A DNA stretch of 64,000 bases, taken from an uncultured Clostridia bacterium (lineage in GTDB: Bacteria > Bacillota > Clostridia > Oscillospirales > JAAYOS01). The notes under the pieces were generated by a model that worked only from the letters and a program-made list of their open reading frames with translations, ran no database searches and was not told where the DNA came from. Numbering within the stretch: position 1 is the first letter of the stretch; each line of letters begins with the position of its first letter. Below are positions 35,951 through 51,904 of this stretch, in pieces. The stretch covers positions 3,892-67,891 of the forward strand of contig CALXFK010000043.1 of the NCBI GenBank assembly GCA_944387575.1. Reading direction: 5' to 3'. The translations under genes and the position numbers were made by a program.

Positions 35951-36002
35951 TTACGTCTAATGTAACTGGAGACCCTCCTGGCGGCTTTTTGCCGCCAAAT
36001 AT

Positions 36003-36347
36003 GGGGGCGTACCGGTTTCGACGGGGATGCAGAGGCTGGATAAGCGGGTCGTGGCGTCCTCCACGTAAAAAGGGCAACCTTATAAATTAAGCAACGATAC
36101 TGAACTTGCTTACGCAGCCTAATTAGGCTGCCGTCCGCCCCGAAGGACCACGAGCGGGATACGGGCGTCGTTTAGTGGTGAACGTGCGTGCGCAAAGCTT
36201 TGAGCGCACACATGAATTATGAAGCTACCTCTCTTTTAAGCCAGCCGTCAGGCGTCTGAGAGAGGGAATTTAAACCGACGGCTGCACCCGGAGAAAGTCC
36301 TGTCGAAGCGTTTTCGGACAGGGGTTCGACTCCCCTCGCCTCCACCA
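36003..36347 (+). ncRNA. ssrA: tmRNA (ssrA)
   Basis: 5' GGGGGCGTACCGGTTTCGACGGGG and 3' GGACAGGGGTTCGACTCCCCTCGCCTCCACCA form the tRNA-like domain. The internal tag frame AAC GAT ACT GAA CTT GCT TAC GCA GCC TAA (36093-36122) encodes NDTELAYAA*. Confidence 0.92.
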
Positions 36348-36349
36348 TA

Positions 36350-36388
36350 ACGGAGCAAGCGTTTGTCGCTTGCTCCGTTTTATTTTTG
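36350..36388 (+). terminator. ssrA terminator
   Basis: acggagcaagcg / tttgt / cgcttgctccgt followed by tttatttttg. Confidence 0.75.
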
Positions 36389-36405
36389 TAATTGTATAGC
36401 GAAGA

Positions 36406-36432
36406 CCCCGATGCAGGCTGCCTGCATCGGGG
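36406..36432. terminator. 12-bp hairpin downstream of the second GGDEF*/EAL gene
   Basis: ccccgatgcagg / ctg / cctgcatcgggg. U-runs are weak on both strands. Confidence 0.45.
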
Positions 36433-36518
36433 CACATTATTTACTTCTCTCGGCGAAGCTTCATCCTCCGTCTCCCGGCACTACATATGTGTATCCGAAA
36501 ATCCGAAAAAACTGCACC

Positions 36519-38783
36519 TTACACACCCTGTTCGAAGTTCATGTATTTGCGGCTGAACTCCGCAGCGGCAATAGGCCTGTCATAGAAATAGCCCTGTACA
36601 AAATCGAAGTTCAGTCTCTTGACAAAATCTCTGTCCTCCTGCGTCTCAACGCCCTCTGCAACCGTTGCAATGCCGAACTTTTTGGCAAAAACCACGACCT
36701 GTTCCACTATTGCCTGCCGTTTGACGAGTTCTTCCTCTGAAACCTTGCGCAGAAAACCACGATCCAGTTTCAGCTCGTCGATGTCAAGCTGGTAGAACAT
36801 ATTCAGCGAGGAGTATCCACTGCCGAAGTCGTCCATAGAAATGCGGAACCCTTTTTCATGAAGCGCCTCTATCTGTTTGTTTATCTGCTCAAAATTTTCG
36901 GTGGCAACGCTCTCCAGTATCTCGAGCGTGATAAGAGATGGGGGCACATGATACTTTGCAAGTATCTGAGAGACATTCTCCGGGTAATTGAGGTCGGAGA
37001 ACAGCAGTTTGGACTGATTTATAGATATTGGAGCTGGAGTTATTCCAACATCCATCCACATCCTTATCTGCTTGCAGACCCTCTCCACCATATACATGTC
37101 GAGTTTCAGACAGAATCCGTTTTTCTCAAAGAGCGGTATGAACTCACCCGGCATACGGAAAGAACCGTCCGGATTCTGCCATCTCACAAGAGCTTCCGCG
37201 CCTACGAGCGCATCCGTCTTTAAATTGAACTTAGGCTGAAGGAACAGCTTGAACTCTTTGTTTTGCAGCGCCGCATACATATGACTCTCTATACTATTTT
37301 TACGGCGCACTTCGTCGTGAAGCACATGGTTGTAAAACGCGATACTCTTCTGGTGAGAGTTCTGGATACTCTGCATTGCAAGCAGTGCCCGTTCCCTGTC
37401 CCCGCAAATCGCTATACCGCAATAGGTAGACAGTTCATAGCTGTACTCCCCATAATCCAGGCTCACCCGGCTGATATGGTCTATTATCTTCTGCATACGC
37501 TTTTGAACCAGTTGCTCATCGTTGTCAAGCAGCAGTATATAAAACAGGTCCGCCGTATCTCGGCAAAAGAACTCCCCCGTCTTTAGCATTCCCTCGATCA
37601 TCTCTTTAAGGTAACACAGCACCTTGTCTCCGCGATCTTGCCCAAACAGGTCGTTTATACCCTTGAAATTGTGCACATTCATCGCGACAGTGCTGTAATT
37701 CTTATGCTGACTGGATATTTCATTGAAACGCTGATTGAATCGGATAGTGTTTTCCGCACCTGTCACCTGGTCCTGATACGCTATTCGAATGAGTGCTCTC
37801 ACCGCTTTGCGGAACTGCCTGTACCCCGCATAAAGCAGCCCGTTGACCACGAGCAGCACAAGCAGCACCACCACTCCGGTTATCACCAGGACGCCGCCAA
37901 GCGCCAAATGTGCCCCCCACACAGTGTTGGCACAGAACAAATACCAACCGTTCATCCCAAGCGGCTCCAGATAATAGTGGCACCTCGTTCCCTCGTACCT
38001 GAATTCTCCGAGCACACTCTCCTGCTTGCTCAGCGCTAACCGGGTCTGCTCCTTAGTCTTTTCAGTCAGGTATGAACCGTCATATATTGTGTTCACGTCC
38101 TCCTTTATAAGGGTGTTCTGCGAGCGCACCAAGATCCTGCCCTCGCTGTTTATCAGGTTTATATAACCCGCCCCACCCATTACCGCTTTTCCGTTTGCAA
38201 TGTCGGTAAATATCTCAAGGGTATCGCTCGCCGCCAGTGCACCGACCACCTTGCCATTCTGATAGACCGGGACGGCATAAACGAACAGTTTTTCTCCATA
38301 AACGTCGCTACCAAACATTTTAGAGATGCCGTTATTTCCCTCGAAAGCCATTTCGATCACATCTATGGCGTAAGGATCGCAGTCCTCCAGCGTGATCTCG
38401 GACCTGTTTCCATATGTCGCCGTACTCATGACTCCGTGACCGTCTTTCCAGATATAGAGCATACTGATAAAATCGTTTGCCGAATTGGTAGCCGTGAGGC
38501 TCTGCTCCAACTGATCTTTGTCATTTGCGATGGAACTCACCTCGTATGCCTTTGCGAAGGTAGTCAGTATTTGTATGTTCTTGTCTATCTGTTTGAGTAT
38601 ACGTTCTTTATACTCCTGCGTCTCTATACGCATCTGTTCGTGCGCTGACTCATGAACCGCCTGCATCACATACTGCAAAAGGAACACGCCGACCAGGCAC
38701 AGCACCAAACAACTGACAACAGTTATAACAGTTATGCGTATCAGTTGTTTTCTTAATTTTTTCTCGTCCATCCCTAAATCCAC
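36519..38783 (-). CDS. sensor protein: TM - extracytoplasmic Cache-like domain - TM - degenerate GGDEF - EAL phosphodiesterase
   Basis: The GGDEF-fold region has ...FCRDTADLFYILL in place of RxGGDEF. EAL motifs are intact (EALVRW, INQS, LEILES, DDFGSGYSSL, KLDRGF, AEGVETQED, QGYFY). Confidence 0.85.
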   Translation of the reverse strand: MDLGMDEKKLRKQLIRITVITVVSCLVLCLVGVFLLQYVMQAVHESAHEQMRIETQEYKERILKQIDKNIQILTTFAKAYEVSSIANDKDQLEQSLTATNSANDFISMLYIWKDGHGVMSTATYGNRSEITLEDCDPYAIDVIEMAFEGNNGISKMFGSDVYGEKLFVYAVPVYQNGKVVGALAASDTLEIFTDIANGKAVMGGAGYINLINSEGRILVRSQNTLIKEDVNTIYDGSYLTEKTKEQTRLALSKQESVLGEFRYEGTRCHYYLEPLGMNGWYLFCANTVWGAHLALGGVLVITGVVVLLVLLVVNGLLYAGYRQFRKAVRALIRIAYQDQVTGAENTIRFNQRFNEISSQHKNYSTVAMNVHNFKGINDLFGQDRGDKVLCYLKEMIEGMLKTGEFFCRDTADLFYILLLDNDEQLVQKRMQKIIDHISRVSLDYGEYSYELSTYCGIAICGDRERALLAMQSIQNSHQKSIAFYNHVLHDEVRRKNSIESHMYAALQNKEFKLFLQPKFNLKTDALVGAEALVRWQNPDGSFRMPGEFIPLFEKNGFCLKLDMYMVERVCKQIRMWMDVGITPAPISINQSKLLFSDLNYPENVSQILAKYHVPPSLITLEILESVATENFEQINKQIEALHEKGFRISMDDFGSGYSSLNMFYQLDIDELKLDRGFLRKVSEEELVKRQAIVEQVVVFAKKFGIATVAEGVETQEDRDFVKRLNFDFVQGYFYDRPIAAAEFSRKYMNFEQGV

Positions 38784-38985
38784 ATTCCTCTCTGCTGCCT
38801 TCCGACCATCCTCCTAGGTCGTGATGGGATAACCGCAACTACCCATCCGCCCCCTCCCATATCACCCAGCATACTTACCAAGTTTCAATATACAGCATTA
38901 CACCAGCAAAATACAACAGTGAAATCTTAAAAATTTTGTATTTTTAGCTGTTAAACTACGAAATTCTGCACGATCAAGCGACCAA

Positions 38986-40824
38986 TCAGGTATTGCCGCT
39001 GGCAGACGCTCCCGCAGCCTCGTGCTGTGACAGTATCTTACGCTTGACCTCCCAGCGCGGCATTGGATGGTAAAACCGAAAACCCTGTATTACATCACAG
39101 TTTATCTTCTGCAATGCCTCTACCTGGCTGTCCTCCTCAACACCCTCTGCAAGGATTGTCATGTTGAGCTCATGACCAACCTGTATCATCCCCTTAAGCA
39201 CCGACATGCCGCTCGGGGTCATCATATGGTCGATGAGACTTTTCCCCAGTTTAATGCCGTTGATGGAGTATTTCTGCAAATCGTAAAAGGAAGTAAACCC
39301 CTCTCCGAAGTCGTCAAGGACCACCTGGACACCGTATTCTTGCAGCAAAGTGACGTTCTTCTGTATCTGCAGAACGTTTTCCACGTCCACACTTTCGGTG
39401 ATCTCCATTATGAGCAACTCTCTCGGAAAGGTATATCTGTTGATTATATTCTTTACATTTTTTACAAATTCGGGAGCAACAAATGTCTCCCGCGAGAAAT
39501 TGCACGAGATAAAGAAGGTGTCCACATTCTCATGCAGCAGTTCTTCCAAGAACCCGCACACCTCCTCCAGACAGTAGTAGTCGAGGCGGCTTATAGACTT
39601 TTCCCTCTCCATCAACGGAACGAACTCGCCCGATAGCAGCACGCCCCTCTGCGGATGGTTCCACCGCGACAGTGCCTCTCCCCCGACAACATCAAACGTA
39701 TGGGCATCTACATAGAACTGGAGATACAACTGGAACTCATGCTTCGAAAACGCATCGTCTATACTCGCCTGCAACAATTTTTCCTGCTGGATCCGCTCCA
39801 TCATTTCATTAGAGCACAGCACGTAGTCCTTCGCAGTCCGCTGAGCTTCATATGCACCTTGCAAGGCGTAGAACAGCATCTCGTTAAGATCCCAGTCCTG
39901 CTTTTTCAGCGGGTACACGCCCACATATATATCCACTTCAAGCAATTTCCAGCACTGCTCCGCATATTGGCGCACCCGCTCAAGGACAGGTTTAAGCCAC
40001 TCCTCCGTTCCGAGCGTACCGCTGGTAAACCGGAGCATCGCAAACCCTCGTTCGGAAACCCGGGCGAGGATATCGGTATCAGCCGCGTTCTCACGCAGGA
40101 ACGATGCACATTTCGAAACGAATTCGTCGGTCTCCTTTCCCCCGATAATCCGCCTGAGGTGATCGGTGTCCACATAGAAATAGAGAAGCTGATACAGCAC
40201 CTTGTTCTTATCGTTTACATACTGCCTGTAATACCGCTGAAACTGTTCCCCGTTTCCAAGTCCGGTGACCTCGTCTGTGTGTGCCTCGAGCCACAAGTTC
40301 CGCAGCCGTTTCCTGAAAGCGCGGACGAGCAGCGCTATCGTGCAGCCGAGCAGTACGACGACAAGCGCGAGCGATGCAATGACAAGGTGCAGGCTGTGCT
40401 CGTTATTTGGCGCGTCTCCGGCAGAGAGCAGCGCCCCGGTTATTTTCCCGGCGGGCAGAGAGGACAGAAAACCGGTCAGTTCCGCTCTGAATGTATCCGG
40501 GGTGGCGTCGGTAAAGTACAGGTAATATACCTGCTCCTCCCCTCCCATCGACGCGGTGAACAGAACGACCGAGCCGTCGTTTTCCGGAATCCTGTCGCCC
40601 TGCGCGTACCCGGACAGGAGGTCCACCTGATTGTTTACCGCGTAATCGGCACGATGGTCATCGCCGTCGGTTCCGTAATAAACGATGTCGTACCCGCTCT
40701 GCTCGGAAAATTCGCGCAGCAGCTGTGGGATGACCCCCTCGAACGTCTGCGTATCCCGGTCAAAATACTCCAGCGGGTACCCGTCCGGGTTTCCGGCGAC
40801 ATATATCAGAGTTTTCTGATTCAC
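38986..40824 (-). CDS. periplasmic-binding-like domain - TM - degenerate GGDEF - EAL phosphodiesterase
   Basis: N-terminus IYVAGNPDGYPLEYFD... resembles a type-3 solute-binding domain. The GGDEF site reads ARVSERGFAMLRF. EAL motifs are present (EALSRW, CNFS, MEITES, DDFGEGFTSF, AEGVEED, QGFRF). The GTG start lies 3 nt after the upstream stop. Confidence 0.8.
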   Translation of the reverse strand: MNQKTLIYVAGNPDGYPLEYFDRDTQTFEGVIPQLLREFSEQSGYDIVYYGTDGDDHRADYAVNNQVDLLSGYAQGDRIPENDGSVVLFTASMGGEEQVYYLYFTDATPDTFRAELTGFLSSLPAGKITGALLSAGDAPNNEHSLHLVIASLALVVVLLGCTIALLVRAFRKRLRNLWLEAHTDEVTGLGNGEQFQRYYRQYVNDKNKVLYQLLYFYVDTDHLRRIIGGKETDEFVSKCASFLRENAADTDILARVSERGFAMLRFTSGTLGTEEWLKPVLERVRQYAEQCWKLLEVDIYVGVYPLKKQDWDLNEMLFYALQGAYEAQRTAKDYVLCSNEMMERIQQEKLLQASIDDAFSKHEFQLYLQFYVDAHTFDVVGGEALSRWNHPQRGVLLSGEFVPLMEREKSISRLDYYCLEEVCGFLEELLHENVDTFFISCNFSRETFVAPEFVKNVKNIINRYTFPRELLIMEITESVDVENVLQIQKNVTLLQEYGVQVVLDDFGEGFTSFYDLQKYSINGIKLGKSLIDHMMTPSGMSVLKGMIQVGHELNMTILAEGVEEDSQVEALQKINCDVIQGFRFYHPMPRWEVKRKILSQHEAAGASASGNT

Positions 40825-40827
40825 GGT

Positions 40828-41340
40828 CTATTCCTCAGCCTCGTCTTTCCGTTCAAAAAGACCCATATTGCGGCGCGGACCGGTTGCCTCCACCGTTTCC
40901 ACCTGACGCGCAAAATCCTGCACCTGCCTGTTCATCCCGGAAACCATCTCTTCAAACACGTCATGCAGCGCTTTTATCTTGCCGCTGTACTGCTCGAGTT
41001 CCATGTATTTCGCGGATAGCTCCGCCTCCCACTCCTCTCTCTCCTTCTTCGCCTTAGCCTGCGCCTCCTGACGCACTGCTTCGGCGGAGCGGGTCGCTTC
41101 CATCATTGTGGAAGCAATGGTCATCTGCGCCGCTTTGTGCTTTTCAAGCTGCTCCTGTGCGCTCTGCAACTTAGCCTCCAGGTCGGCTATCCGCGCGCGG
41201 TACTGCTCCTCCGCCCTTTGATTTTCCGACACTTTCTCCGCCATCTTAGTAGCAAACTCATTTTCGATATAGCTGATATATTCGTAAACGCTCGTCTTTT
41301 TATATCCGAATAGCCCCTTTTTTATCTGATCCAACTGCAT
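40828..41340 (-). CDS. DivIVA-domain coiled-coil protein
   Basis: N-terminus LDQIKKGLFGYKKTSVYEYISYIE resembles the DivIVA/GpsB lipid-binding head, followed by a long heptad-rich helix. ATG sits behind GGAGG. Confidence 0.6.
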   Translation of the reverse strand: MQLDQIKKGLFGYKKTSVYEYISYIENEFATKMAEKVSENQRAEEQYRARIADLEAKLQSAQEQLEKHKAAQMTIASTMMEATRSAEAVRQEAQAKAKKEREEWEAELSAKYMELEQYSGKIKALHDVFEEMVSGMNRQVQDFARQVETVEATGPRRNMGLFERKDEAEE

Positions 41341-41370
41341 ATACAAACCTCCATTTTGAACTGTTGACCG

Positions 41371-42774
41371 TTATTTGAACTGTATTTGTTTTCGCTCGAT
41401 GCGACCCCAGGAGTGTTTCTTTTTCTTGTATCCGAATAGTGCCGTGGTCCGTATCCACGCAAGTATCATTCTCAGACAGGATACCTCGACCAAACATAGC
41501 ACAATCGCTTTGACAAAGTCGGAAAATGTTAGCTTCATATCAATCGTATGTACCCGGGCAAAGAAAGCTGTGAGCGACAGTATCGCGGAATATACAACGT
41601 ATGTCACGTAAAACAGGATCATGAACGGCACGTTGATGAGGTCGACCCAGAACGCGAGCGCCACCGTCAGGATGCCAAACACCTCAATGTACGGCGACAG
41701 CAGCTCATATATCAGGAAATACAGGTAGGACACCATCCCGACAAGTCCGTACTTGTGGTTTATGAACATGCGCCTGTGCATCACCATGCTCTGGAACAGC
41801 CCTATGTGCCAACGTCTGCGCTGCTTGCAGAGGTCTTTCATCTTCTCCGGCACCTGTGTCCAGCAGACCGCATCGGTGGCGTATCGTATGCGGTACGGTA
41901 TCCCGTTTTCACGGCAGTAGGCATGCATCTTGACAACAAGTTCCATGTCCTCCCCCATCGTCGAGGCGTCGTACCCACCGGCGTCTATTACCACATTCTT
42001 CTTGAAGAGTCCAAATGCGCCCGAAATTATAATGCTTCCGTTGAACCGGTCGAACAGTATGCGCGCGGCAAGAAACGACCGATCATATTCCAGGACCTGC
42101 ATGCTCGGTATTATCTTTTTCGGCATGTGGTACGAGACCACCCTGCCGTTCTTTATCTCGGCTCCGTTGCATGGGCGGACTACACCTCCAACCGCCACCA
42201 CGCGACTATCCTCTAGCACTGGTCGCACTATCTTTTCAAGCGAGTCGTACTGCAACACCGAGTCCGCGTCCATACAGATGAAGTACGGGTATTTGGATGC
42301 GTTTATCCCCATGTTCAGCGCGTCCGCCTTTCCGCCGTTCTTCTTGCGGATGAGCGTTATCGGTACCTTCCACTCGTAGCTCTCGTAGACTGCCTCCTCC
42401 GGCTGGCAGGGCACCTTCCTCTGTATTGGACGGCTTATCGCCTTCATGTTGAACGCCTCACACACCACTTTTGAGGTATTGTCCTTCGAACCGTCGTCCA
42501 CTATCACTATCTCGTACAGCTTGTACTCAAGCGCAAGCAATGACCGGATGCTCGCCTCTATCGTCACTTCCTCGTTATATGCCGGAACCACTATCGTGAC
42601 CGGAACATAGTACTCGCCCAGGAGTTCGCTTTTCAGTCTGTTTCTTCTCTTCATCTGGTAGAGCATAGACGACCCCACCGTCACCGCAAGAAACAGAAAG
42701 CTCGCATACCCTATCATGTACAGTATGAAGAAAACGCCTACATACTCAAAGAACTGCTTATATGCGTCCATCAC
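41371..42774 (-). CDS. processive family-2 glycosyltransferase (IcaA/PgaC/cellulose-synthase-like)
   Basis: VPAYNEE, VDDGSKDNT, CMDADS (DxD), GAFGLFKK and QRRRWHIG (QxxRW), with N- and C-terminal TM helices. Confidence 0.85.
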   Translation of the reverse strand: MMDAYKQFFEYVGVFFILYMIGYASFLFLAVTVGSSMLYQMKRRNRLKSELLGEYYVPVTIVVPAYNEEVTIEASIRSLLALEYKLYEIVIVDDGSKDNTSKVVCEAFNMKAISRPIQRKVPCQPEEAVYESYEWKVPITLIRKKNGGKADALNMGINASKYPYFICMDADSVLQYDSLEKIVRPVLEDSRVVAVGGVVRPCNGAEIKNGRVVSYHMPKKIIPSMQVLEYDRSFLAARILFDRFNGSIIISGAFGLFKKNVVIDAGGYDASTMGEDMELVVKMHAYCRENGIPYRIRYATDAVCWTQVPEKMKDLCKQRRRWHIGLFQSMVMHRRMFINHKYGLVGMVSYLYFLIYELLSPYIEVFGILTVALAFWVDLINVPFMILFYVTYVVYSAILSLTAFFARVHTIDMKLTFSDFVKAIVLCLVEVSCLRMILAWIRTTALFGYKKKKHSWGRIERKQIQFK

Positions 42775-42780
42775 GGCGCA

Positions 42781-43887
42781 CTACACCTCCGCACTCTGCA
42801 GCTTGCGAGACTCAAGCCGATACATCATCATTTCCCGCGCATAGCGGTCATTGCCCGCCGTTATATCTAAAATATCGCTGTAATCCACATTGTGGTGCTC
42901 GAGGCTCTGAGATGCAGAGTACCTGACGTACCAGTTCCCACTGTGCAGCGCCTCCTTCAGTGCGTCCACGACCTCCTGACCCGGATACGACGCAAGCGAG
43001 GACGCTGCCACCGTCGCATACTCCCACCTGCTCATGTCGCCGTCTAACACAAACCCAATCAGGTCATCCCGCGCCGGTCCATAGTAGTACTTCCCAAGAT
43101 ACCTTATCGCCGATAATCGCAGCTCGATATTCTCCGCGCGGTCGGTCATTATCGCGTACATCTCCTCCTTATAGTCGCCCGAACAGAAACGGATATAGTT
43201 CAATATCGCGAGCTTCATATGGTTCGAAAAACCAGAAAACTCTGACCACAACTGCGATATCAACTGCCCGTGATCCCCAGAATACGAGAGCAGACCCTCG
43301 GTTATCAGCTTATTGTGCATAAACACGTTTCCGTCGTCCGCAATTTTTATGGCGCGAACGACGTACTCCGGATTTGCCATGTGATAGAGCACCTTCAGCG
43401 CATTGAACCGGCAGTATAGATTCTCCTTTCGCACGTATTCGAGCAGGATATCCTGGAGCGAATCGACCGGCATCTGCCTACCCGCAGTATAGTTTGAGAG
43501 AAAATATGTAAAGTACCCCGCCTTGTCGTTTGCCTTATCGCGGTACACGAGCGCAAGATAGAGTATCGCCGGGCGTATCTGCCGAAGATATGTCTCCGCC
43601 AGCTCCGACTTTCCGGCGTCCCCCTCGTTTATTACCATATGAAACGCCATAAGATCGTTCACATGGCACAGCTTACGGCGCAGTACCGCGGCATGGCGCG
43701 GATCTATTTCACCGCTTCTGCGTATCTCGCTCAGCTGGAGCATCACCATCCGCTCAAATTTCTCCCGCCGCCGCTTCATACGCGGGACACTCCATTTTAG
43801 CATCATATTGTAGACGAAATTGAACATTATCATGCTCACGCACACTGCGCCATAGACGTATATCATCACCTCTATGTTCATCCACAA
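42781..43887 (-). CDS. membrane-anchored HEAT/ARM-like repeat protein, function unknown
   Basis: One N-terminal TM, then all-helical repeats. The C-terminus ALKEALHSGNWYVRYSASQSL is a HEAT-type repeat. Confidence 0.5.
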   Translation of the reverse strand: MWMNIEVMIYVYGAVCVSMIMFNFVYNMMLKWSVPRMKRRREKFERMVMLQLSEIRRSGEIDPRHAAVLRRKLCHVNDLMAFHMVINEGDAGKSELAETYLRQIRPAILYLALVYRDKANDKAGYFTYFLSNYTAGRQMPVDSLQDILLEYVRKENLYCRFNALKVLYHMANPEYVVRAIKIADDGNVFMHNKLITEGLLSYSGDHGQLISQLWSEFSGFSNHMKLAILNYIRFCSGDYKEEMYAIMTDRAENIELRLSAIRYLGKYYYGPARDDLIGFVLDGDMSRWEYATVAASSLASYPGQEVVDALKEALHSGNWYVRYSASQSLEHHNVDYSDILDITAGNDRYAREMMMYRLESRKLQSAEV

Positions 43888-43918
43888 CGCTCCTTTCAGC
43901 AGGCGGCATACTCACTTT

Positions 43919-46180
43919 TCAGTGTTCCCGCCAGTACTCCTGCAGGATAAAATACGACTCTTTCAGCCGCTCATGATAGCTTACCTGCTTACCCCAGCCG
44001 TCAAGACCGAACCCGAACATCTCTATCCGCTCCCCGCTCCCCGCGCGGGCGTCCCCTTCGACCGCTACTCCGACAAACATCTCGTCTATATGTATATACT
44101 CAACGCCGTAGTTTTCATAGTAATCGTCGTGTATCATCATCTCGGACGGGTTCGCAAAGTTCAAAAGCTGCCAGGGCAACCTTATCTCGATGAAGTCACC
44201 CGAGAAAATGAAGTCGGCAAGCGAATTGAAGTCCTCCGAATCCGGGTTTGCATTTCCGTAGGTGAACAGCCCTGTCTCATAAGTCTCCGCCGACGCAAGC
44301 CAGTTTCCGGTTATGAGCGGGGTCGCTGTTTGCAGCATCATGCGTATCTCCTTGAACACCAGGGTATCCGCATCCACGGTATCGAGAAACGGATCCATAT
44401 CGTGCGTCTCGTGATAGAACATGGCGCGCAGCACCTCATACCGCTCCTGGACAAGAATGCGGCTGTTCTCCTTGCCGTCTATGACTATCAGGAAGTCGCT
44501 CGCCCGCTCAAACGAGATGCCGTAGTTCTCGCAGTATGTGCTCCCGGTCTTGGGGGTGGTGTCTATCGGGATGTAAATTACATCCTCGTCCGGCGAAAAG
44601 TTCTCCTTCTCCACAAGGAAATATATGAACTTCTCATCGTACTTCATCGAGACGGTCAAGCCTTCCTCCTCGACCACGACATCCTCCGGCTCCCACTCTG
44701 AAGTATCTCCGTCCACGTAACAGACGCTCTCCTCGTCGCCCGGGTCAAACGTGAGCAGCCCGAAATACTGCTCGTTTGTCTGGTAGTCGCTCCAGTAGGG
44801 AGTGTTGTCCAGGTCAACCGCGTGCATAGTGTTCCAGGTGCGCTTGAACCACTCGTCCTGCCACGTGAAAACGCAGCTTCCCGCACACCCGGCAGCCATG
44901 ATTTCCTCGTAACACTCGATTATCGCCCGCCCCTGCTCATCCTCGGTCATATGCCCCTGGTTCCGACCGGTGTTGTAGTCGCGCTGAGCCATTCCCCGAC
45001 CGGTGGACACCCCATACTCGGATATGACCACCGGGACGGTGTGGTAGTTTGTAAGCGCCTTCAGATAGGTGTAGTAGGTATTCACCCTGCCGCTCCCGTC
45101 CAGATAGTCCGCGTCCTCCCCGCCCGGCAGATACTGCGTTATCAGGTTCTCGGGCGGCACTATCTCGTAGACGTCGTACGCCTCGCCGACGTCCGCTATG
45201 TTGTCCGGCAGGTCGCGGTTCAAATACATATACGTGAGATAGTCCGGGTAATACGGATAGACGTGATACGACGCAAAGTGTCCGGACAGGAAGGCGTCGG
45301 TGGTCTTTATATGCTCGACGTCCACCTTTGCGCACTTCATGAAAAAGCGGGTTATATCGCTTTGATAATCGAACGGATCGGTGGTGGGCCAGTTTGAAAA
45401 CGCCACAAGCCTCTGCTCCTTGTACCGCTCAGTCTCGTACTCTATTATTTTGTCCCCCACCTCGCAAAGCATCGCCTCAAACGGCGACGCATCCTCGGTC
45501 GTATACATGTACTCGCCCTGATACGAGTTGCGCTCCGGGTACTTGTTATTCGTGTACGTGACGGTCACATCCTCCCATTCTACCCCGAGGATATAACCTA
45601 TCACCCAGTCGGACACGTCCTTTCTGTACCTCCCCGAACCGACCCCGTACCCGAGGTTCAGATTTTTCTTGCCGTGAAGAATGTCCACCACCGTCCGGCA
45701 GTCGTCGAGCAGGGTCTGTCGAAAGTCGTCGTCATAGGCGTCGCGGTGCGAGTTCTGTACATAGTCGTTCACCCAGACCCCGTGAATTAGCCAGAGCGGC
45801 TCCTCCCCCGTGGCTTCCCGCTCGGTATTGTACTCATAAAATGCGTTGTAAAAGTCGTCCTGGAGAATAGTATACACCCGGAGAGTGTTCGCACCGAGCT
45901 CCTGTATCCACCCAAACCACCGTAGATAGGTCGCCCGGTCGATAGCATAGTCGGTCGCCCACTCCCCCGGGATCCCAACCCCCATGTTGACTCCGCGTAT
46001 CTCAAACGGCTTATAGACACCGTCGCGCTCCATGTATATCGTGTCCGCATCGGTATTCATGAAGGTGGTCACCGGCGCGTCCGGGTCGAGGTCAACATAG
46101 ATGCCAAGACGGTAATACGCAACGTTCCATGCGACAAAGAGCAGCACCAATATGCACACCACTATGATAAACTTTTTCAT
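43919..46180 (-). CDS. N-terminally anchored extracytoplasmic protein with a TIM-barrel glycoside-hydrolase-like domain plus C-terminal beta-rich domain
   Basis: Signal-anchor MKKFIIVVCILVLLFVAW. GANTLRVY, FSNWPTTDP and VISEYGVSTG resemble clan GH-A strands 4 and 7. Family not identified. Confidence 0.5.
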   Translation of the reverse strand: MKKFIIVVCILVLLFVAWNVAYYRLGIYVDLDPDAPVTTFMNTDADTIYMERDGVYKPFEIRGVNMGVGIPGEWATDYAIDRATYLRWFGWIQELGANTLRVYTILQDDFYNAFYEYNTEREATGEEPLWLIHGVWVNDYVQNSHRDAYDDDFRQTLLDDCRTVVDILHGKKNLNLGYGVGSGRYRKDVSDWVIGYILGVEWEDVTVTYTNNKYPERNSYQGEYMYTTEDASPFEAMLCEVGDKIIEYETERYKEQRLVAFSNWPTTDPFDYQSDITRFFMKCAKVDVEHIKTTDAFLSGHFASYHVYPYYPDYLTYMYLNRDLPDNIADVGEAYDVYEIVPPENLITQYLPGGEDADYLDGSGRVNTYYTYLKALTNYHTVPVVISEYGVSTGRGMAQRDYNTGRNQGHMTEDEQGRAIIECYEEIMAAGCAGSCVFTWQDEWFKRTWNTMHAVDLDNTPYWSDYQTNEQYFGLLTFDPGDEESVCYVDGDTSEWEPEDVVVEEEGLTVSMKYDEKFIYFLVEKENFSPDEDVIYIPIDTTPKTGSTYCENYGISFERASDFLIVIDGKENSRILVQERYEVLRAMFYHETHDMDPFLDTVDADTLVFKEIRMMLQTATPLITGNWLASAETYETGLFTYGNANPDSEDFNSLADFIFSGDFIEIRLPWQLLNFANPSEMMIHDDYYENYGVEYIHIDEMFVGVAVEGDARAGSGERIEMFGFGLDGWGKQVSYHERLKESYFILQEYWREH

Positions 46181-46198
46181 GGCACTGTTCTCCTTACT

Positions 46199-47671
46199 TT
46201 AGTGGTTGAATTTCTTGTTCTTCGACTCGTGACTGTACTGAAGCAGTATCTCGATATGTTCATCCATCCAGTCGCCCCGGTCATGGATGAAATCCTTCAA
46301 CTGGTCGACCGCATCATCGAAGTCCTCCGGGTTGCGCTCGGACGGCGACAGCGCCAGAAACTCATCAAACGTATATCCCCAAACCTCAAAATTCCGCTCT
46401 ATTGCAGGTCCCAGATACTCGATCACCTCGTCTATATATCCGAGCAGGTACTCCTCGCTCAGATAGCTGCGCCTCAGCTCGCGGTACTCGCTTATGATGC
46501 GCTTGACAAAGTATTCGTCCTTCATCAGCATGTAGTACCACACCGCCTGCTGCATCTCAAAGTGATGTGGCTCGACGGTCGTCTTTTCATAGTTGTTGCA
46601 TGCCGAGTTGAAGTCCCATATCACCATGTTGTACTTTCCGCGGATGTCCTTGTACAGATACGTTGAAAGCCACCCGGCGTCGTAGTTCGTAGTAAACTCG
46701 TTTATTATGAAGTACTCGACAAACGACCCGACGTCGATATCGAGGTAATAGCCATAGTCGTCGGTGTCGTAATCGTAGGAGTAGAGGCTCTTCTCAAAGT
46801 CGGAGAAATCCTGCTCAATCGCGTCCGCCATCTCCGCGGTCAGCGAACCCGAACGCGGATACTGTATGTTAAGTTTCTGGAGGTTTCTAATGGCGTGGTT
46901 GGTAAAGGTCATTATGTTCTTTAGCTCCGTACCGCTGCCGCGGTCCAGACGTATAACATACCCCGTACTCACCGTGCCGTCTATCGGCTCGCTTACGTTG
47001 ACGCGGCAGTCGTCTCCGTTCGTTATCGTCTCGGTCATCACGTAAAGCCCCTGGTACTCGCCATTAAGAATGACCTCGCAGAACCGGACATTCGGCGCAT
47101 AATCCATTATCTCGCCCGCAATGTTGTACCACATGTAGTTGCGTATGAGCGACTTGTCAAGGTACGGACCGTGCAGCGCCCACTCGTAGTGCGGGTCCAT
47201 ACCCATCATCTCCTCGCTGCGGTACTCACCATTCTTGCCGGTCAGCCGGAGCAGATAGCTCTTTTTGTCGAAAAACCGAGAGGAATTCCCGCGTATACGG
47301 ATAACGATGTCACTCTCAAGGTCGGGCTCGTCGGACGGATGGTGGTTATGTGCATCGTCGCTCATCACCGACATCTTCGCGCTCACCATCTCCTCGCCGG
47401 TTTCGGTCGTGGTATATCCTATCGCATGGTTGTTCTCATCGACGATAGGCTCGCCCGGCATCTCCACTCCGCCGGTGTCTATAACTACGAGCGGAAGATG
47501 TGTGCACAGCTCGCTCCGGTCACAGCTGCACCCCTCGTCAGGCTGGCGTGCAACAAGGTGTTGGTGTATACGGTTGGTCGGGTTTTCGCTGTCAATCGCG
47601 GTGGCGGTAAATACCCCGGCAAGCATTATCACAGCCAGCACAACGCCCGCTATGCGATACTTCACACACAC
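46199..47671 (-). CDS. cotH: CotH kinase-family protein (secreted/anchored)
   Basis: RIRGNSSRFFDKKSY.LRL, YMWYNIAGEIM.YAPN..F.EV.LNGEY.GLY and WDFN are CotH signatures. N-terminal signal/anchor. Confidence 0.85.
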   Translation of the reverse strand: MCVKYRIAGVVLAVIMLAGVFTATAIDSENPTNRIHQHLVARQPDEGCSCDRSELCTHLPLVVIDTGGVEMPGEPIVDENNHAIGYTTTETGEEMVSAKMSVMSDDAHNHHPSDEPDLESDIVIRIRGNSSRFFDKKSYLLRLTGKNGEYRSEEMMGMDPHYEWALHGPYLDKSLIRNYMWYNIAGEIMDYAPNVRFCEVILNGEYQGLYVMTETITNGDDCRVNVSEPIDGTVSTGYVIRLDRGSGTELKNIMTFTNHAIRNLQKLNIQYPRSGSLTAEMADAIEQDFSDFEKSLYSYDYDTDDYGYYLDIDVGSFVEYFIINEFTTNYDAGWLSTYLYKDIRGKYNMVIWDFNSACNNYEKTTVEPHHFEMQQAVWYYMLMKDEYFVKRIISEYRELRRSYLSEEYLLGYIDEVIEYLGPAIERNFEVWGYTFDEFLALSPSERNPEDFDDAVDQLKDFIHDRGDWMDEHIEILLQYSHESKNKKFNH

Positions 47672-47695
47672 CGCCTCCTCTCACTTCTCTGTGCG

Positions 47696-48385
47696 TCAAC
47701 TGCTTATCTCGTCGTTCTGCATCACAAGATTGCAGTACTCAATGTTCCCTATATCATAGATCGCGTCGGTTATACTCTTCGAACCGACATTCTTTTTTCT
47801 GCCACTTCTGTCGAGCACCCGTTTACTTATCTCGTAAATAAACTCTGCACTGTTCTCGGTCGTGTTCTTGACGCGGAGGTTTGCCTTGTGGGAAAAATAC
47901 TGGAACATCAGCGCCTCCACCCGCTCCTCGTTTACCCGCGAGGTGCGGAGGATGAGCAGCATCCTGTTGTCGTTCTTTATACGCCCGAAAATCAGCAGCA
48001 GCGCAAACGTAAACGCGCCGCCTATCCCCGCCGTAAGGTAGTCCCCGGCGCCGCAGCATATTCCGGTCACAATCGCCCAGAAGATATACACGGTGTCCCT
48101 CGAATCCTTAATCGCGGTGCGGAAACGGACTATCGAAAGCGCGCCCACCATACCAAGTGAAAGCGCGATATTGTTGCCGATAACTATCATTACGGCGGTA
48201 GTGACGACGGTGAGCGTCATCAGCGATACATTGAATTTCTTACTGTATATGCTCCCCTCGTGCGAGAGCATATAGGAAACGTATATAAAAAAGGAGATCC
48301 CGGTCGCCACGACCATGCGCATAACAATAGTGCTGAGACTGAGCTGCCCCGTACTCTCCAGCAGTTCCAGCAGTATCTCTCTCAT
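47696..48385 (-). CDS. DUF4956 membrane protein
   Basis: GALSIVRFRTAIKDSRDTVYIFWAI signature. The ATG at 48385 sits behind AGGAGGAGG; the ORF-track N-extension is rejected. Confidence 0.8.
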   Translation of the reverse strand: MREILLELLESTGQLSLSTIVMRMVVATGISFFIYVSYMLSHEGSIYSKKFNVSLMTLTVVTTAVMIVIGNNIALSLGMVGALSIVRFRTAIKDSRDTVYIFWAIVTGICCGAGDYLTAGIGGAFTFALLLIFGRIKNDNRMLLILRTSRVNEERVEALMFQYFSHKANLRVKNTTENSAEFIYEISKRVLDRSGRKKNVGSKSITDAIYDIGNIEYCNLVMQNDEISS

Positions 48386-48399
48386 ACAAAGCCTCCTCC

Positions 48400-49095
48400 T
48401 TATAGTGCAAACTTCATACTGGCGCTCCGCGCAAGGCAATACTTGCTTACCGACAATTCGGAGCGATCGGCTGCGTTCACCAGGTTCTTTATGTAACTGA
48501 GCAGGAAACCGTTGTATTTGACCTCCAACACTCCGTTGAACGGGTCGAGCACCGGGTACAGATTCAGGTGCTCTGAAAACAGGTCTGCACAGCACTCGGT
48601 CGCACGTATGTCGCCGTCAAAAGTGATCCTTATCCGGTTCTCCCTAGCAATATACGCACGCCTGCGGTACTCGACTATCGTCTTTGGACGGTAACAGTAC
48701 ATCTGCATCATCCCGTAACACTCCGCCGCAAAAGGGTCGTCATACTTCAGAAGGCTGCCATACCTGCCCTCCGCAAGCCCGGCTGCATCCGCCCTCGATA
48801 TGCGAAGCGAGCGCTTCTTCTGATACGCGCCCTCTTTCTGCTTCATCTCGAGCATCGCGAAATCGTCCGCCGGGTCGTATATCCGCACACGGATCTTCCG
48901 CCGCAGTTCGAGCCCGTCAATTTTCTCCTCATAGTCCCTGTCGTACAAACTGTCAAAATACAGTGAACGTATATTGTAGCCCAATATGCCGTTGTGCGGG
49001 TCGGGTATCATCACCCGGTCAAGTCGGCAGGACAGCTCCTTCATGCCGGAAATAGTCATGAAATATTTCTTCTCCTGTCGGTACACCTCGTTCAA
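48400..49095 (-). CDS. VTC-domain (triphosphate-tunnel, polyphosphate-polymerase-like) protein
   Basis: YRQEKKY (ExK strand 1), RRKIRVRIY, EMKQK, RITFD and LEVKY are alternating charged tunnel strands typical of Vtc4-like TTM domains. The TTG start at 49095 sits behind GGGGGGTGAT. Confidence 0.8.
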   Translation of the reverse strand: MNEVYRQEKKYFMTISGMKELSCRLDRVMIPDPHNGILGYNIRSLYFDSLYDRDYEEKIDGLELRRKIRVRIYDPADDFAMLEMKQKEGAYQKKRSLRISRADAAGLAEGRYGSLLKYDDPFAAECYGMMQMYCYRPKTIVEYRRRAYIARENRIRITFDGDIRATECCADLFSEHLNLYPVLDPFNGVLEVKYNGFLLSYIKNLVNAADRSELSVSKYCLARSASMKFAL

Positions 49096-49121
49096 ATCAT
49101 CACCCCCCGAATACTTCAAAG

Positions 49122-49177
49122 CAAAAAATAAAGCTGCAAAACACGTCACTTTTTAAATGACAGTGATTTTGCAGCTT
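49122..49177 (-). terminator. expression-platform terminator of the c-di-GMP riboswitch
   Basis: Minus-strand RNA reads AAGCUGCAAAA ... UUUUGCAGCUU followed by UAUUUUUU. The 5' arm overlaps the 3' end of the aptamer. Confidence 0.7.
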
Positions 49178-49254
49178 GACGGTCATAACAGTTTTCTGCC
49201 GTAGACTCAGAGCTTTGCGTCATCGTCTTTCAACGATTTTGCCCAAACTTCGAT
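49171..49254 (-). promoter_or_regulatory. c-di-GMP-I (GEMM-I) riboswitch aptamer
   Basis: Minus-strand RNA reads GUUUGGGCAAAAUCGUUGAAAGACGAUGACGCAAAGCUCUGAGUCUACGGCAGAAAACUGUUAUGACCGUCAAGCUGC. It contains GGCAAA, a GAAA-capped helix, the GACGCAAAGC core and a second helix with UA..UAUG receptor-like bulges, as in Vc2. Confidence 0.8.
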
Positions 49255-49294
49255 ATTTAATTTACCTCTAATCGACAACGCTGATTACTGTGTT

Positions 49295-49323
49295 ATCATA
49301 CACCATATGAATCCAAATTTCAA
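49295..49323 (-). promoter_or_regulatory. candidate sigma-A promoter driving the riboswitch/operon
   Basis: Minus strand reads TTGAAA - 17 nt - TATGAT, about 40 nt upstream of the aptamer. Confidence 0.5.
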
Positions 49324-49696
49324 TACGGTCATCAAATACTTTTCACGGCAAATCAATTTTTTACCCTCCGAGCACAACCTCTGTAAACCCGGGGCGAGGC
49401 GTGTATCACGGACTTTTCTTCACTACACGTGTAGCGTTCCCTTCCAGACTCAGACCTTCGTCGTTCTGCATCTTCTCATCTCACCATTACATATCACATA
49501 TTAGGCTATTACACCGCCGGTTAAAAAATAACAAAAATCGGCTTTGACCTTCTAAGCCAAGCAAAAAGCGGAAACGCAAGGACACATTTATATATATATC
49601 CAAAATACATACCTACGTTTTCTCTGATTATAATATTTTTGACCAATAATTTCAAGCCATTTTTCTACCTTATAAAATTTAATTAAAGCACAAAGG

Positions 49697-49725
49697 CTGA
49701 AAGTGTAGACTAATACGTTTATAAT
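49697..49725 (+). promoter_or_regulatory. candidate promoter of the divergent diguanylate cyclase gene
   Basis: CTGAAA - 17 nt - TATAAT in the AT-rich intergenic region. Confidence 0.4.
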
Positions 49726-49821
49726 ATGATATACTGGATAACGTTATTAAAATAGTTATCATAATCATTCTCAATTCTATTTTACCATGCTGAACATGGG
49801 GGCAAAGGAGGCGACGACAAT

Positions 49822-51534
49822 ATGATAGGCTCTGCGGTTTTAGGGTCTTTTCCCAAGCGAGCTGCCTTTGCTTTCGTTCTTGTGATGGTCATGTCTCTGA
49901 TGTTGGCTGCTGTATTTCGCTATGCCACTCCGCTTGACGGTATTCCGGACACGTACCCGAAGTCAATAGACGCCGGCTGGTTCTACGAGGACGACGGCAC
50001 GCTCTGCCCAATTGGCAAGCTGCCCTGCACGCTCGAGCACAACGGCGAAACGTTGTATATGGTCCGTGAGCTCTCTGATCTACCACACGATTCCGACGAT
50101 ATTCTCGCAGTTGAGACACGCTATCAGTCGATCCGGGTCTGGGCAGATGATGAAGTAATATATGAAGCGGCGCAGGGAAAGGAACACGCGCTTAGCACCA
50201 TGTGGCATTTCATCGCGTCCGAGCGGTACGATGGCGCCACGGAGATCCGCATCGAGCTCACTAAATACGACGGCGATCTGGAGTGGTCACTCAACCGCAT
50301 CTTCCAGGACCATCCGGATGCGATAAAGGTGTATCTTCTCGAGGAACACATACCGATCCTGATAGTATGGCTGTGCTGCATGTTGTTTGCGCTTCTGCTG
50401 ATGTTCGGTATTCTTTTCATGGCAGTAAAGAAGGTCGCAGGGATCACGACAGTTATCTCGCTTGCTTCATTTATATTTCTTTCGGGCAGTTGGATACTTT
50501 TCGACTCCAAAATCACCACGATATTTGGGGGGAATTACGCATTTACATACTTTCTCAGCTATGCCGTCTTTTATCTGATGCCTGTTCCACTCCTCTTCTT
50601 TTTCCAGCTCATACTCAATTTGCAGAGCAGGTTGCCGCGAATTCTCACATGGGTCACGGCAATAAACGCTGCGTTCTGGATGCTTATGCACCTGCTCGGC
50701 ATAGTCGATATACGCGATACCGCTGTGTGCGTCCACCTCATCATCATAGCGTTTGTCGTTCTGTTTATAGTCGAATTTTTTAAGAAGAGGACAAAACGGC
50801 TGATTTTCACGTTTTGTGGTATATTTTTGCTGTTTGTCCTGGCGCTTGCATCGATAGTACTGTATTATGCCGGGCTCCTTCCACCGTCCAACAGCGCTAT
50901 ACTGTTTGTCTGGAGTCTGCCAGCACTCATACTCTGCATGGTTATGGACACCGTGCTAATGGTCTATAACATATGGAAGGAACAGCAGTTCAATTCGGTC
51001 TACCGCCAGCTTGCCATCGAGGACAGTATGACCCGTCTTGCCAACCGCAACGCCTACGAGCTTCGGCTGCGCGAACTTGTAAGCGGCGATCCCTGTGAAC
51101 TCAGCTTTGTTCTTTTCGACATCGACCGAATGAAATATATAAACGACACATACGGTCACCACATCGGAGACCAGGTCATCGAGCTTGTAGCGCAGTGTAT
51201 ATTTGACACATTCGGGAACTGCGGCGACTGTTATCGCATAGGCGGCGACGAATTCTGCGTTATAGCGACCAACTGCAACGACATCCCGGGCAGGCTCAAA
51301 CGGTTCGACGAGCTAGTAGCATCGCGCAACGACGCTGAACTTCCTCTGGACGTCTCATACGGATGGGACAAACAGATTTTCAGAAACGGAAAATCGATTT
51401 CACTAAAAGCTATTATCGATCTGAAAACCTCCGCCGATAAGCAGCTCTATCTCCACAAGAACTCAAAAAACTGCGACACCCCTCATCCTGGGCAGTCCGC
51501 GGAAGAGTCAAGCGGCACCGTGCCTCTTCGATGA
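49822..51534 (+). CDS. diguanylate cyclase with extracytoplasmic N-domain and 7TM-type membrane module
   Basis: Signal-anchor, an N-domain of about 130 aa, about 7 TM helices, then MTRLANRNAY...FDIDRMKYINDTYGHHIGD...YRIGGDEFCVI with an intact GGDEF. Confidence 0.85.
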   Translation: MIGSAVLGSFPKRAAFAFVLVMVMSLMLAAVFRYATPLDGIPDTYPKSIDAGWFYEDDGTLCPIGKLPCTLEHNGETLYMVRELSDLPHDSDDILAVETRYQSIRVWADDEVIYEAAQGKEHALSTMWHFIASERYDGATEIRIELTKYDGDLEWSLNRIFQDHPDAIKVYLLEEHIPILIVWLCCMLFALLLMFGILFMAVKKVAGITTVISLASFIFLSGSWILFDSKITTIFGGNYAFTYFLSYAVFYLMPVPLLFFFQLILNLQSRLPRILTWVTAINAAFWMLMHLLGIVDIRDTAVCVHLIIIAFVVLFIVEFFKKRTKRLIFTFCGIFLLFVLALASIVLYYAGLLPPSNSAILFVWSLPALILCMVMDTVLMVYNIWKEQQFNSVYRQLAIEDSMTRLANRNAYELRLRELVSGDPCELSFVLFDIDRMKYINDTYGHHIGDQVIELVAQCIFDTFGNCGDCYRIGGDEFCVIATNCNDIPGRLKRFDELVASRNDAELPLDVSYGWDKQIFRNGKSISLKAIIDLKTSADKQLYLHKNSKNCDTPHPGQSAEESSGTVPLR

Positions 51535-51661
51535 CTCCGTTTTGTCCGGTGCACAGACCTTCTGCAAATAATTATCTATCGCCTGCCGCAACTGAACGGC
51601 AGGCGATATCTAAAAACAAAATATCCGTATCCGTTCATTCCGCAGTTATCCAAAACCATAA

Positions 51662-51688
51662 AAAGGGGGCTACCCCCCCTTTTTTTAT
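51662..51688 (+). terminator. weak terminator-like G5/C7 hairpin with T-run
   Basis: aaagggggctaccccccc followed by ttttttta. An 11-bp hairpin at 51578-51607 lies upstream. Confidence 0.4.
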
Positions 51689-51904
51689 CCCTATCTTTTC
51701 AAAACATACCATTCAGGCGCTATACTTTACTACGCTCTGTTACACTTGCTGCAAATACTTCTTTGTGCCGCAATAGTGAACAGAGTGTCTGCAAGTTGTG
51801 TTAGGGTCGCACCAAAAAATATCACCTCCACACCTATCGTATGAACGCATGGTTACAGAGTGTATTCCCGCTCCTGCCGCGACTTCGATCCGAACTGCAA
51901 CGAC

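Follow-up and report, generated by a model that had tools for sequence, protein, structure and literature searches.

A cassette of minus-strand genes preceded by a class-I cyclic di-GMP (c-di-GMP) riboswitch, with a diguanylate cyclase gene diverging from it on the plus strand, was analyzed in a 64,000-nucleotide (nt) stretch of DNA from an uncultured Clostridia bacterium; the whole stretch is referred to here as the window. Nine open reading frames (ORFs) lie 3' of the aptamer on the minus strand and encode, in order, a VTC-domain protein, a DUF4956 protein, a CotH-family protein, a 753-amino-acid (aa) protein, a HEAT-repeat protein, a GT2 synthase, a coiled-coil protein, and two EAL-domain proteins, denoted EAL1 and EAL2. 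From VTC through EAL1 the genes are tightly packed, with intergenic gaps of 3 to 31 nt. The reading favored here, with moderate confidence, is that of a surface-polysaccharide operon that c-di-GMP induces and that encodes its own enzymes for degrading c-di-GMP.

The cassette is widespread among relatives. A pattern scan with one genome per species returned 532 relatives of the 753-aa protein, and the best 80 of these 532 loci (57 to 77% identity; individual loci carry L numbers), mostly from Oscillospiraceae, Lachnospiraceae, and other Clostridia metagenome-assembled genomes (MAGs), were analyzed by tblastn with the window proteins. The order VTC, DUF4956, CotH, 753-aa protein, HEAT, GT2 (and coiled-coil) is essentially invariant in these ∼80 species-level genomes. 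The flanks vary by species, with ruvC, cdaA, or a collagen-like gene in relatives and the tmRNA gene in the window; hence the cassette is conserved and its location is not. An earlier note on this DNA, made from the window alone, had grouped the cyclase, riboswitch, effector, and EAL genes into one circuit, and these elements do recur together across relatives. The cassette looks like a reusable, self-resetting signaling unit of gut Clostridia.

The leader and its riboswitch

Upstream of the operon, the leader carries a class-I c-di-GMP aptamer (Rfam RF01051; positions 49167 to 49253, minus strand) that matches the covariance model over its full length (1 to 87), at 74.1 bits (gathering score, 35; E = 1e-12). 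Across 44 family members, in an alignment fitted to the model, 95.9% of the cells in the aptamer helices are paired and 17 of the 22 pairs show compensatory change; none of 500 shuffles reached 17 of 22 double-change pairs, and slid controls gave 5 to 9. At the position equivalent to G20, a ligand contact in Vc2, the window aptamer has G, and among the 44 homologs G is found in 35 and A in 8. The loci with A at this position (alignment column 11) are L005, L007, L027, L048, L051, L069, L079, and L083; A there is presumably a signature of cyclic GMP-AMP (cGAMP)-selective or promiscuous GEMM-I variants.

The aptamer overlaps an intrinsic terminator (49120 to 49177, minus strand), in which a 5' arm at 49177 to 49167 pairs with a 3' arm at 49141 to 49131 ahead of a U-run (AAGCUGCAAAA...UUUUGCAGCUU, then UAUUUUUU; −24.6 kcal/mol, z = −4.96). 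The 5' arm coincides with the final 11 nt of the Rfam match, and the long helix of the aptamer has its 3' strand there. In the ligand-free minimum-free-energy fold, the terminator is present and the long 3' helix of the aptamer (Rfam pairs 40 to 50 with 70 to 81) is absent. When the aptamer pairs are enforced, the 11-bp base of the terminator is lost and a truncated hairpin is left (−39.2 versus −45.9 kcal/mol), at a cost of 6.7 kcal/mol that nanomolar ligand could pay. The same layout is found in 42 of the 44 class-I leaders, where a terminator hairpin (dG ≤ −14.7, U-rich tail) begins 6 to 19 nt inside the aptamer; the arm sequences vary between leaders (GCUGCAAAA, GACCGCA, and others) while the layout stays. 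Because terminator and aptamer are mutually exclusive, ligand binding should block termination, and the class-I aptamer is predicted from this folding to be wired as an ON switch at high c-di-GMP. The supposition of the earlier note that high c-di-GMP opens the riboswitch agrees with this prediction.

Class-I aptamers are common at this position. A covariance model built from four aptamers and rebuilt from 44 was applied to the 69 nonredundant loci with at least 300 nt upstream of VTC, and class-I aptamers were found directly 5' of the VTC gene in 43 of them. In 21 further loci scanned with Rfam, the sole additions were two class-II aptamers (c-di-GMP-II), which replace class I at L034:6851-6935 (68.3 bits) and L036:240-322 (57.3 bits); in both, a complementary arm and a T-run, read by eye, overlap the 3' end of the aptamer. 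These two loci look like cases in which the riboswitch class was swapped at one regulatory position. Two groups of loci, L066/L067/L077 and L081/L084, have long leaders (300 nt upstream of VTC) that are conserved within each group; these leaders match no Rfam family, and the species in each group may be too close for the conservation to be informative.

Riboswitches of both classes in Clostridioides difficile resemble those of the cassette in that they occur in Clostridia, are associated with surface and adhesion genes, and act by transcription termination (PMC6200980). All tested class-I c-di-GMP switches of C. difficile are OFF switches, and its class-II switches are ON switches (PMC6200980). 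In contrast, the class-I switch of the window is predicted to be ON, and class II takes its place in two cassette lineages.

The aptamer and the divergent cyclase are separated by an intergenic region of 568 nt (49254 to 49821). A consensus scan identifies a candidate operon promoter there (TTGAAA-17-TATGAT, 49323 to 49295, minus strand), 41 nt ahead of the aptamer. This region was also considered as the site of a remnant of the co-directional leading cyclase that is found in some relatives (see below), an idea that was dropped when blastx and blastn returned the aptamer only.

Effector genes and related loci

The effector genes all lie on the minus strand. The first encodes the VTC-domain protein (231 aa; 48400 to 49095; Pfam VTC, 3.4e-41), for which a TTG start at 49095 is likely because the Pfam match starts at residue 24 of the longest ORF. 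It is followed by a DUF4956/MgtC-like membrane protein (229 aa; 47696 to 48385; Pfam DUF4956, 8.3e-13), whose start was set by orthologs of 226 to 231 aa, and by a CotH-family kinase-like protein with an N-terminal anchor in the form of a hydrophobic N terminus (46199 to 47671; Pfam CotH, 7.1e-60). The 753-aa protein (43919 to 46180) is likewise anchored and tentatively combines a glycoside hydrolase (GH)-like TIM barrel with a beta-sandwich. It has no match in Pfam, NCBIfam, or a PDB sequence-profile search; the sequence alternates strands and helices and then ends in a beta-rich region, AF2 gives a low-confidence model (pLDDT 59) whose best Foldseek matches are to the clan GH-A families GH157, GH2, and GH72 with low TM-scores, and a few orthologs are flagged PF03198. 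Together these features give only a hint of a possible glycan-processing role. The HEAT-repeat protein (42781 to 43887; Pfam HEAT_2, 1.4e-8) begins with a transmembrane (TM) segment, so that the CotH, 753-aa, and HEAT proteins have N-terminal anchors alike.

The GT2 synthase (41371 to 42774; Pfam GT2, 1.1e-28) has a QRRRW motif and 1+3 hydrophobic segments, and the combination of a Q(R/Q)xRW motif with TM helices is characteristic of processive membrane synthases. In NCBIfam it matches PgaC/IcaA (TIGR03937) best, at 146.6 bits, far under the equivalog cutoff of 422.3, which would make it a relative of the poly-N-acetylglucosamine synthase and not that enzyme. The coiled-coil protein (172 aa; 40828 to 41346) is weakly DivIVA-like: the label given to it previously holds as far as the coiled coil and the weak similarity go, and falls short of the Pfam DivIVA threshold (20.5 bits against a cutoff of 28; 22 bits for the L059 ortholog). 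Outside the EAL proteins, Pfam and NCBIfam revealed neither a PilZ domain nor another known receptor domain for c-di-GMP in the operon. Judged by these domains, "matrix or surface-polymer operon" seems a reasonable label. Some relatives carry additional genes or inserts within the cassette; for example, VTC and DUF4956 are separated by a polysaccharide deacetylase gene (PF01522) at L001/L025:1088-2530 (a Massiliimalia MAG), and an insert of ∼1.5 kb lies between DUF4956 and CotH in L073, L074, L080, and L086.

The effector set resembles NELoc-2, a chromosomal locus associated with necrotic enteritis in Clostridium perfringens (PMC2879425, PMC5964661). Its published table lists VTC proteins of 230 to 232 aa, a "tubulin/FtsZ" membrane protein of 222 to 226 aa, a CotH protein of 497 aa, a hypothetical protein of 685 aa, a HEAT protein of 377 aa, and a GT2 "chitin synthase" of 466 aa (PMC2879425); the window proteins in the same order measure 231, 229, 490, 753, 368, and 467 aa. 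Set side by side by description only, the six effector genes are thus alike in order and size, and the "tubulin/FtsZ" membrane protein would correspond to DUF4956 of the window. Unlike the window cassette, NELoc-2 as described starts with a sigma factor, has a resolvase inside, and lists no riboswitch, cyclase, or EAL gene.

A second likeness is to the pel loci of Gram-positive bacteria, where, as in the window, a trio of CotH, VTC (poly-phosphate-polymerase), and DUF4956 genes lies beside a synthase-dependent exopolysaccharide system (PMC7112168, PMC12345266). In bifidobacteria a diguanylate cyclase/phosphodiesterase gene joins the CotH/VTC/DUF4956 set, and the genes for the CotH-like protein and the membrane protein have a part in the Pel-dependent aggregation of Streptococcus intermedius (PMC7112168, PMC12345266). 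The window cassette differs from these loci in having a PgaC/IcaA-like GT2, a HEAT protein, and a GH-like protein in place of pelDEA(DA)FG, and riboswitch control in place of PelD. The S. intermedius study did not find the syntenic trio outside Pel loci (PMC12345266); the ∼80 loci analyzed here place it with a non-Pel GT2, and therefore the trio is not confined to Pel loci.

EAL proteins and cyclases

The EAL and GGDEF proteins largely bear out what the earlier note had read from the sequence: an EAL1 translationally coupled to the operon, an EAL2 with a Cache-like sensor and intact EAL motifs, dead GGDEF A-sites in both, and an intact cyclase with a 7TM module diverging from the riboswitch operon. 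EAL1 (38986 to 40824, minus strand; Pfam EAL, 5.8e-51) consists of a 146-aa N-terminal domain, one TM segment, a degenerate GGDEF domain, and an EAL domain. Its GTG start lies 3 nt past the TAG of the coiled-coil gene, with a GAGG ∼8 nt upstream. The GGDEF A-site reads SERGF (within RVSERGF), unlike the GG(D/E)EF A-site of active cyclases, and there is no RxxD. The N-terminal 146 residues show no signal peptide and a weak SBP_bac_3 hint. Positive residues follow the TM segment, and a cytoplasmic EAL domain would need the 146-residue domain to cross the membrane without a leader.

In the EAL domain of EAL1, the motifs EALSRW, N442, E474/E477, DDFG, K525, EGVE, and QG are present, and the protein holds the catalytic heptad E383, N442, E474, E477, D504, K525, and E560; the metal and catalytic residues of RocR are E175, N233, E265, E268, D295, K316, and E352, and its substrate-recognition residues are Q161, R179, D296, and D318 (PMC2952852). 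Among 121 close homologs, E383, R387, N442, E474, D504, D505, K525, E563, and Q580 are invariant, and E477 (119/121) and E560 (120/121) are nearly so. The closest solved structure is that of DosP (E = 6.5e-41), an active phosphodiesterase with a degenerate GGDEF domain.

EAL2 (36519 to 38771, minus strand; Pfam EAL, 4.6e-61) is built of a TM segment, a dCache domain, a second TM segment, a degenerate GGDEF domain, and an EAL domain. The ATG at 38771 is the start used by all orthologs; a longer ORF with a GTG start spans 36519 to 38783. The sensor matches dCache_1 with E = 1.5e-10 at 41 bits, slightly below the Pfam cutoff of 45. The A-site reads TADLF (within CRDTADLF), likewise departs from GG(D/E)EF, and comes with no RxxD. 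The EAL motifs (EALVRW, N, EILE, DDFG, K, and EGVE) are identical or conservatively replaced in 8 orthologs; the substrate-recognition R, D, and KLD are present, and loop 6 reads DDFGSGYSS. EAL2 was found in 9 of 54 loci, all from the clade closest to the window, always directly 3' of EAL1, and in riboswitch loci only. From this distribution it may be a clade-specific second phosphodiesterase input that is perhaps cotranscribed. EAL1 and EAL2 are separated by a gap of 214 nt to the ATG, or 202 nt to the GTG (38772 to 38985, minus strand). The gap has no Rfam match at E ≤ 1, a fold z of 0.17, no recognizable terminator (a weak AT-rich hairpin only), and no strong promoter; the idea of a regulatory RNA or terminator there was dropped on these results.

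The divergent cyclase (49822 to 51534, plus strand; Pfam GGDEF, 1.1e-19, with a TIGR00254 match) is intact by its YRIGGDEF motif, FDIDRMKYINDTYGH, and the upstream DID and NDxxGH residues. It has no RxxD I-site. The 7TM module comprises an N-terminal anchor, ∼140 outside residues, and seven hydrophobic segments; it matches no Pfam sensor family, even at E ≤ 5, and distant homologs (22 to 28% identity) carry PF07695 (7TMR-DISM_7TM).

Many relatives also have an intact cyclase at the operon, of a different kind. This leading cyclase is a co-directional GGDEF protein of ∼510 aa, some copies of which match PAS weakly and below threshold. In 11 loci the distance from its stop codon to the aptamer start is −3 to +60 nt. 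No sigma-70-like site was found within 200 nt upstream of the aptamer in 9 of 13 leading-cyclase loci. In these genomes the riboswitch would seem to act as an internal attenuator, with the cyclase ahead of it and the effectors behind, and promoters inside the cyclase gene are possible. At L064 the leading position is occupied by a full-length homolog of the window's 7TM cyclase (27% identical). Other loci have a cyclase 1 to 4 kb downstream of EAL1, and a cyclase is nearby in 16 of the 34 loci for which both flanks are available. The I-site RxxD is missing from 13 of 14 upstream cyclases examined in relatives. Taken together, pairing of a cyclase with this type of operon appears supported as a family-level idea. 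The window also encodes a second GGDEF protein (414 aa; 3578 to 4822, minus strand), 45 kb from the operon, that resembles the leading cyclase of sister lineages (36 to 39% identity in the GGDEF domain and 20 to 28% in the N-terminal part).

Regulatory readings and genomic setting

According to the favored reading, at low c-di-GMP the leader would fold the terminator with the 3' strand of the aptamer, and transcription would halt ahead of the first gene. With c-di-GMP bound, the aptamer would keep that strand, no terminator would form, and RNA polymerase would read through, as the structure and its conservation suggest. Read-through would express a NELoc-2-type membrane and extracellular machine (VTC, DUF4956, CotH, the GH-like protein, HEAT, GT2, and the coiled-coil protein), and EAL1, as a membrane protein with degenerate GGDEF and EAL domains, would be translated straight after the machine proteins. 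EAL1 most likely would hydrolyze c-di-GMP, so that the operon would feed back negatively on the signal or insulate it locally, and EAL1 probably would also couple c-di-GMP to the machine. EAL2 would add a dCache-sensed phosphodiesterase input in some lineages, and a local supply of the signal could plausibly come from the divergent 7TM-GGDEF cyclase; sister lineages would have the full order of PAS-GGDEF cyclase, switch, effectors, and phosphodiesterase(s). Negative feedback from the operon-encoded phosphodiesterase is plausible, and EAL2 and the cyclase are most likely lineage-variable input modules.

Several observations weigh against this reading, the first of them in the window copy of EAL1. 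Its KxD motif reads K-L-G (D527G) at a position that, by residue spacing, is equivalent to the substrate-recognition residue D318 of RocR (PMC2952852). R387 and D505 are kept among the substrate-recognition residues and the D318 equivalent is lost. Of the 121 homologs, 118 have D at position 527, and among family members G527 is confined to the window EAL1 and one identical database protein (P0001). In addition, loop 6 of EAL1 reads DDFGEGFTS and is invariant across the family; the usual loop 6 of EAL domains is DFG(T/A)GYSS. With D527G and the unusual loop 6, the activity of the window EAL1 may be low. The claim that the motifs of EAL1 are intact therefore holds for the seven metal and catalytic residues and not for the substrate-recognition aspartate. 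As judged from its residues, EAL1 is plausibly an active phosphodiesterase, though the window copy may be impaired.

The distribution of EAL1 is a second such observation. Of the 62 loci long enough to show it, 58 have an EAL1-type gene after GT2 or the coiled-coil gene, riboswitch-free loci included, so that EAL1 is a core member of the cassette and not the operon-trailing feedback add-on for which it had been taken. About 16 loci have EAL1 and no detectable riboswitch. The four loci without EAL1 (L032, L055, L059, and L061) also have no detectable riboswitch, and Pfam found nothing regulatory in their neighboring ORFs. When 61 EAL1-type proteins from the loci were aligned, the heptad was intact in all 35 complete proteins from riboswitch loci versus 8 of the 14 assessable loci without a detected riboswitch; the association is significant by Fisher's exact test (p = 2e-4), a value that ignores phylogeny. 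The six dead versions among these 14 loci belong to three lineages, with E474Q and K525Q in L066/L067/L077, at least five changes in L071, and N442R, E474G, DD to AG or TG, and K525T in L081/L084. All are full-length proteins of 599 to 605 aa in an unchanged position in the cassette. Because EAL1 is retained without a riboswitch, and in catalytically dead form in three lineages, feedback is not its sole role and maybe not its main one. It probably has a catalysis-independent role in the machine, as a receptor, scaffold, subunit, or regulator. Conversely, the heptad is kept wherever a riboswitch was found, which fits the predicted role in feedback or insulation.

The remaining observations of this kind concern the cyclase and EAL2. 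Orthologs of the window cyclase (52 to 59% identity) lie in unrelated contexts in three other organisms, none near the operon; the dedicated cyclase-operon pairing proposed in the earlier note is thereby reduced to adjacency in the window. None of the relatives analyzed has as long a gap between EAL1 and EAL2 as the 214 nt of the window; theirs measure 16 to 124 nt.

The alternative that survives best, which we regard as possible and hold tentatively, is that EAL1 serves the synthase primarily as a subunit that senses c-di-GMP, whether as a trigger phosphodiesterase or as a LapD/FimX-like receptor. Its hydrolysis of c-di-GMP would then read the signal or shape it locally for posttranslational control of polymer synthesis, with riboswitch feedback as a side effect. 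Both its near-universal presence at a fixed position and its persistence in riboswitch-free loci, including as dead full-length versions, argue for such a role, as does the negative search of the other operon proteins for known c-di-GMP receptor domains. Precedents exist in trigger phosphodiesterases (PdeR/YciR and PdeL) and degenerate-EAL receptors (LapD and FimX), which act as c-di-GMP sensors in specific modules (PMC3715855, PMC5052742, PMC10211494), and in local signaling at cellulose synthase (PMC3715855, PMC10211494). In three lineages, dead-EAL versions of EAL1 look like receptors of the LapD/FimX type; the window EAL1, in contrast, keeps the heptad, and its strict retention in riboswitch loci (35/35) fits catalytic feedback instead. 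Moreover, the dead versions of L071 and L081/L084 have lost binding residues too and may not bind c-di-GMP.

A closer parallel for EAL1 itself is E. coli DosP, which likewise consists of a sensor, a degenerate GGDEF domain, and an EAL domain that, in DosP, is active. The E. coli dosCP genes place a cyclase and a phosphodiesterase in one transcription unit. They differ from the cassette in that DosP is soluble with a haem-PAS sensor, no riboswitch lies between the genes, and no effector genes are included.

The closed pulse generator proposed in the earlier note, in which the cyclase raises c-di-GMP, the riboswitch opens, and two phosphodiesterases lower the global pool again to give transient matrix expression, now seems unlikely. 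The predicted ON-type leader, the coupling of EAL1 to the operon, the catalytic motifs in both EAL proteins, and the co-occurrence of cyclase, switch, effector, and EAL genes in the closest clade would all suit it, and the associated cyclases without I-sites would not be limited by product inhibition. However, the orthologs of the window cyclase are not operon-linked, most loci are without EAL2, which may be transcribed from a promoter of its own, and EAL1 carries D527G in the window and is kept elsewhere without a riboswitch, even when dead. The second GGDEF gene in the window (3578 to 4822) implies that the pool is not closed, and the dynamics depend on delay and kinetic parameters that lie beyond sequence. 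Homeostatic negative feedback or local insulation fits equally well as pulse generation.

That the neighborhood is largely coincidental, with the cyclase and EAL2 as independent sensors of the global pool beside a riboswitch operon in Clostridia rich in GGDEF and EAL proteins, is improbable: cyclase orthologs in unrelated contexts, EAL2 in only 9 of 54 loci after a long gap, and any nearby cyclase in only 16 of 34 two-flank loci would fit it, but the linkage of EAL1 is near-universal, a cyclase abuts the aptamer in 11 closest-clade loci with a homolog of the window type leading in L064, and EAL2 always lies directly after EAL1 and in riboswitch loci only.

The favored reading can be extended to a portable module that joins cyclase input, an ON riboswitch, NELoc-2-type polymer output, and a reset by EAL1, with or without EAL2. 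In this extension, which is speculative and has perhaps a minor chance of being right, EAL1 would be a trigger phosphodiesterase that senses c-di-GMP as a so far unrecognized subunit of a new synthase-dependent surface-polymer system, and would have decayed repeatedly to a noncatalytic receptor or scaffold where the riboswitch is absent. In full-text literature searches, neither a riboswitch on an operon of this type nor a phosphodiesterase feedback loop driven by a riboswitch had a direct precedent, and no description turned up of the conserved wiring, the ON-wired class-I switch, or the riboswitch-linked retention of EAL1 catalysis. Every part appears to be of a familiar kind, and the conserved wiring is what appears new. 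If true, the favored reading would offer a small natural circuit in which feedback and signal insulation can be studied for the c-di-GMP networks of gut Clostridia, and a first regulatory handle on the uncharacterized NELoc-2-type locus of necrotic-enteritis strains of C. perfringens.

Beyond EAL2, the window contains a tmRNA gene (36003 to 36347, plus strand) that is convergent with EAL2, with GC-rich hairpins at 36349 to 36379 and 36406 to 36432 between them. A genomic island inserted at ssrA (tmRNA) was considered and rejected, since neither a repeated tmRNA 3' end nor flanking direct repeats were found. The G+C content is 0.47 to 0.55 in window positions 36001 to 52000, compared with 0.59 to 0.61 in the flanks (24 to 34 kb and 60 to 64 kb). 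Finally, a T-box leader (117.9 bits) lies at 28738 to 28995 on the plus strand and is unrelated to the cassette.

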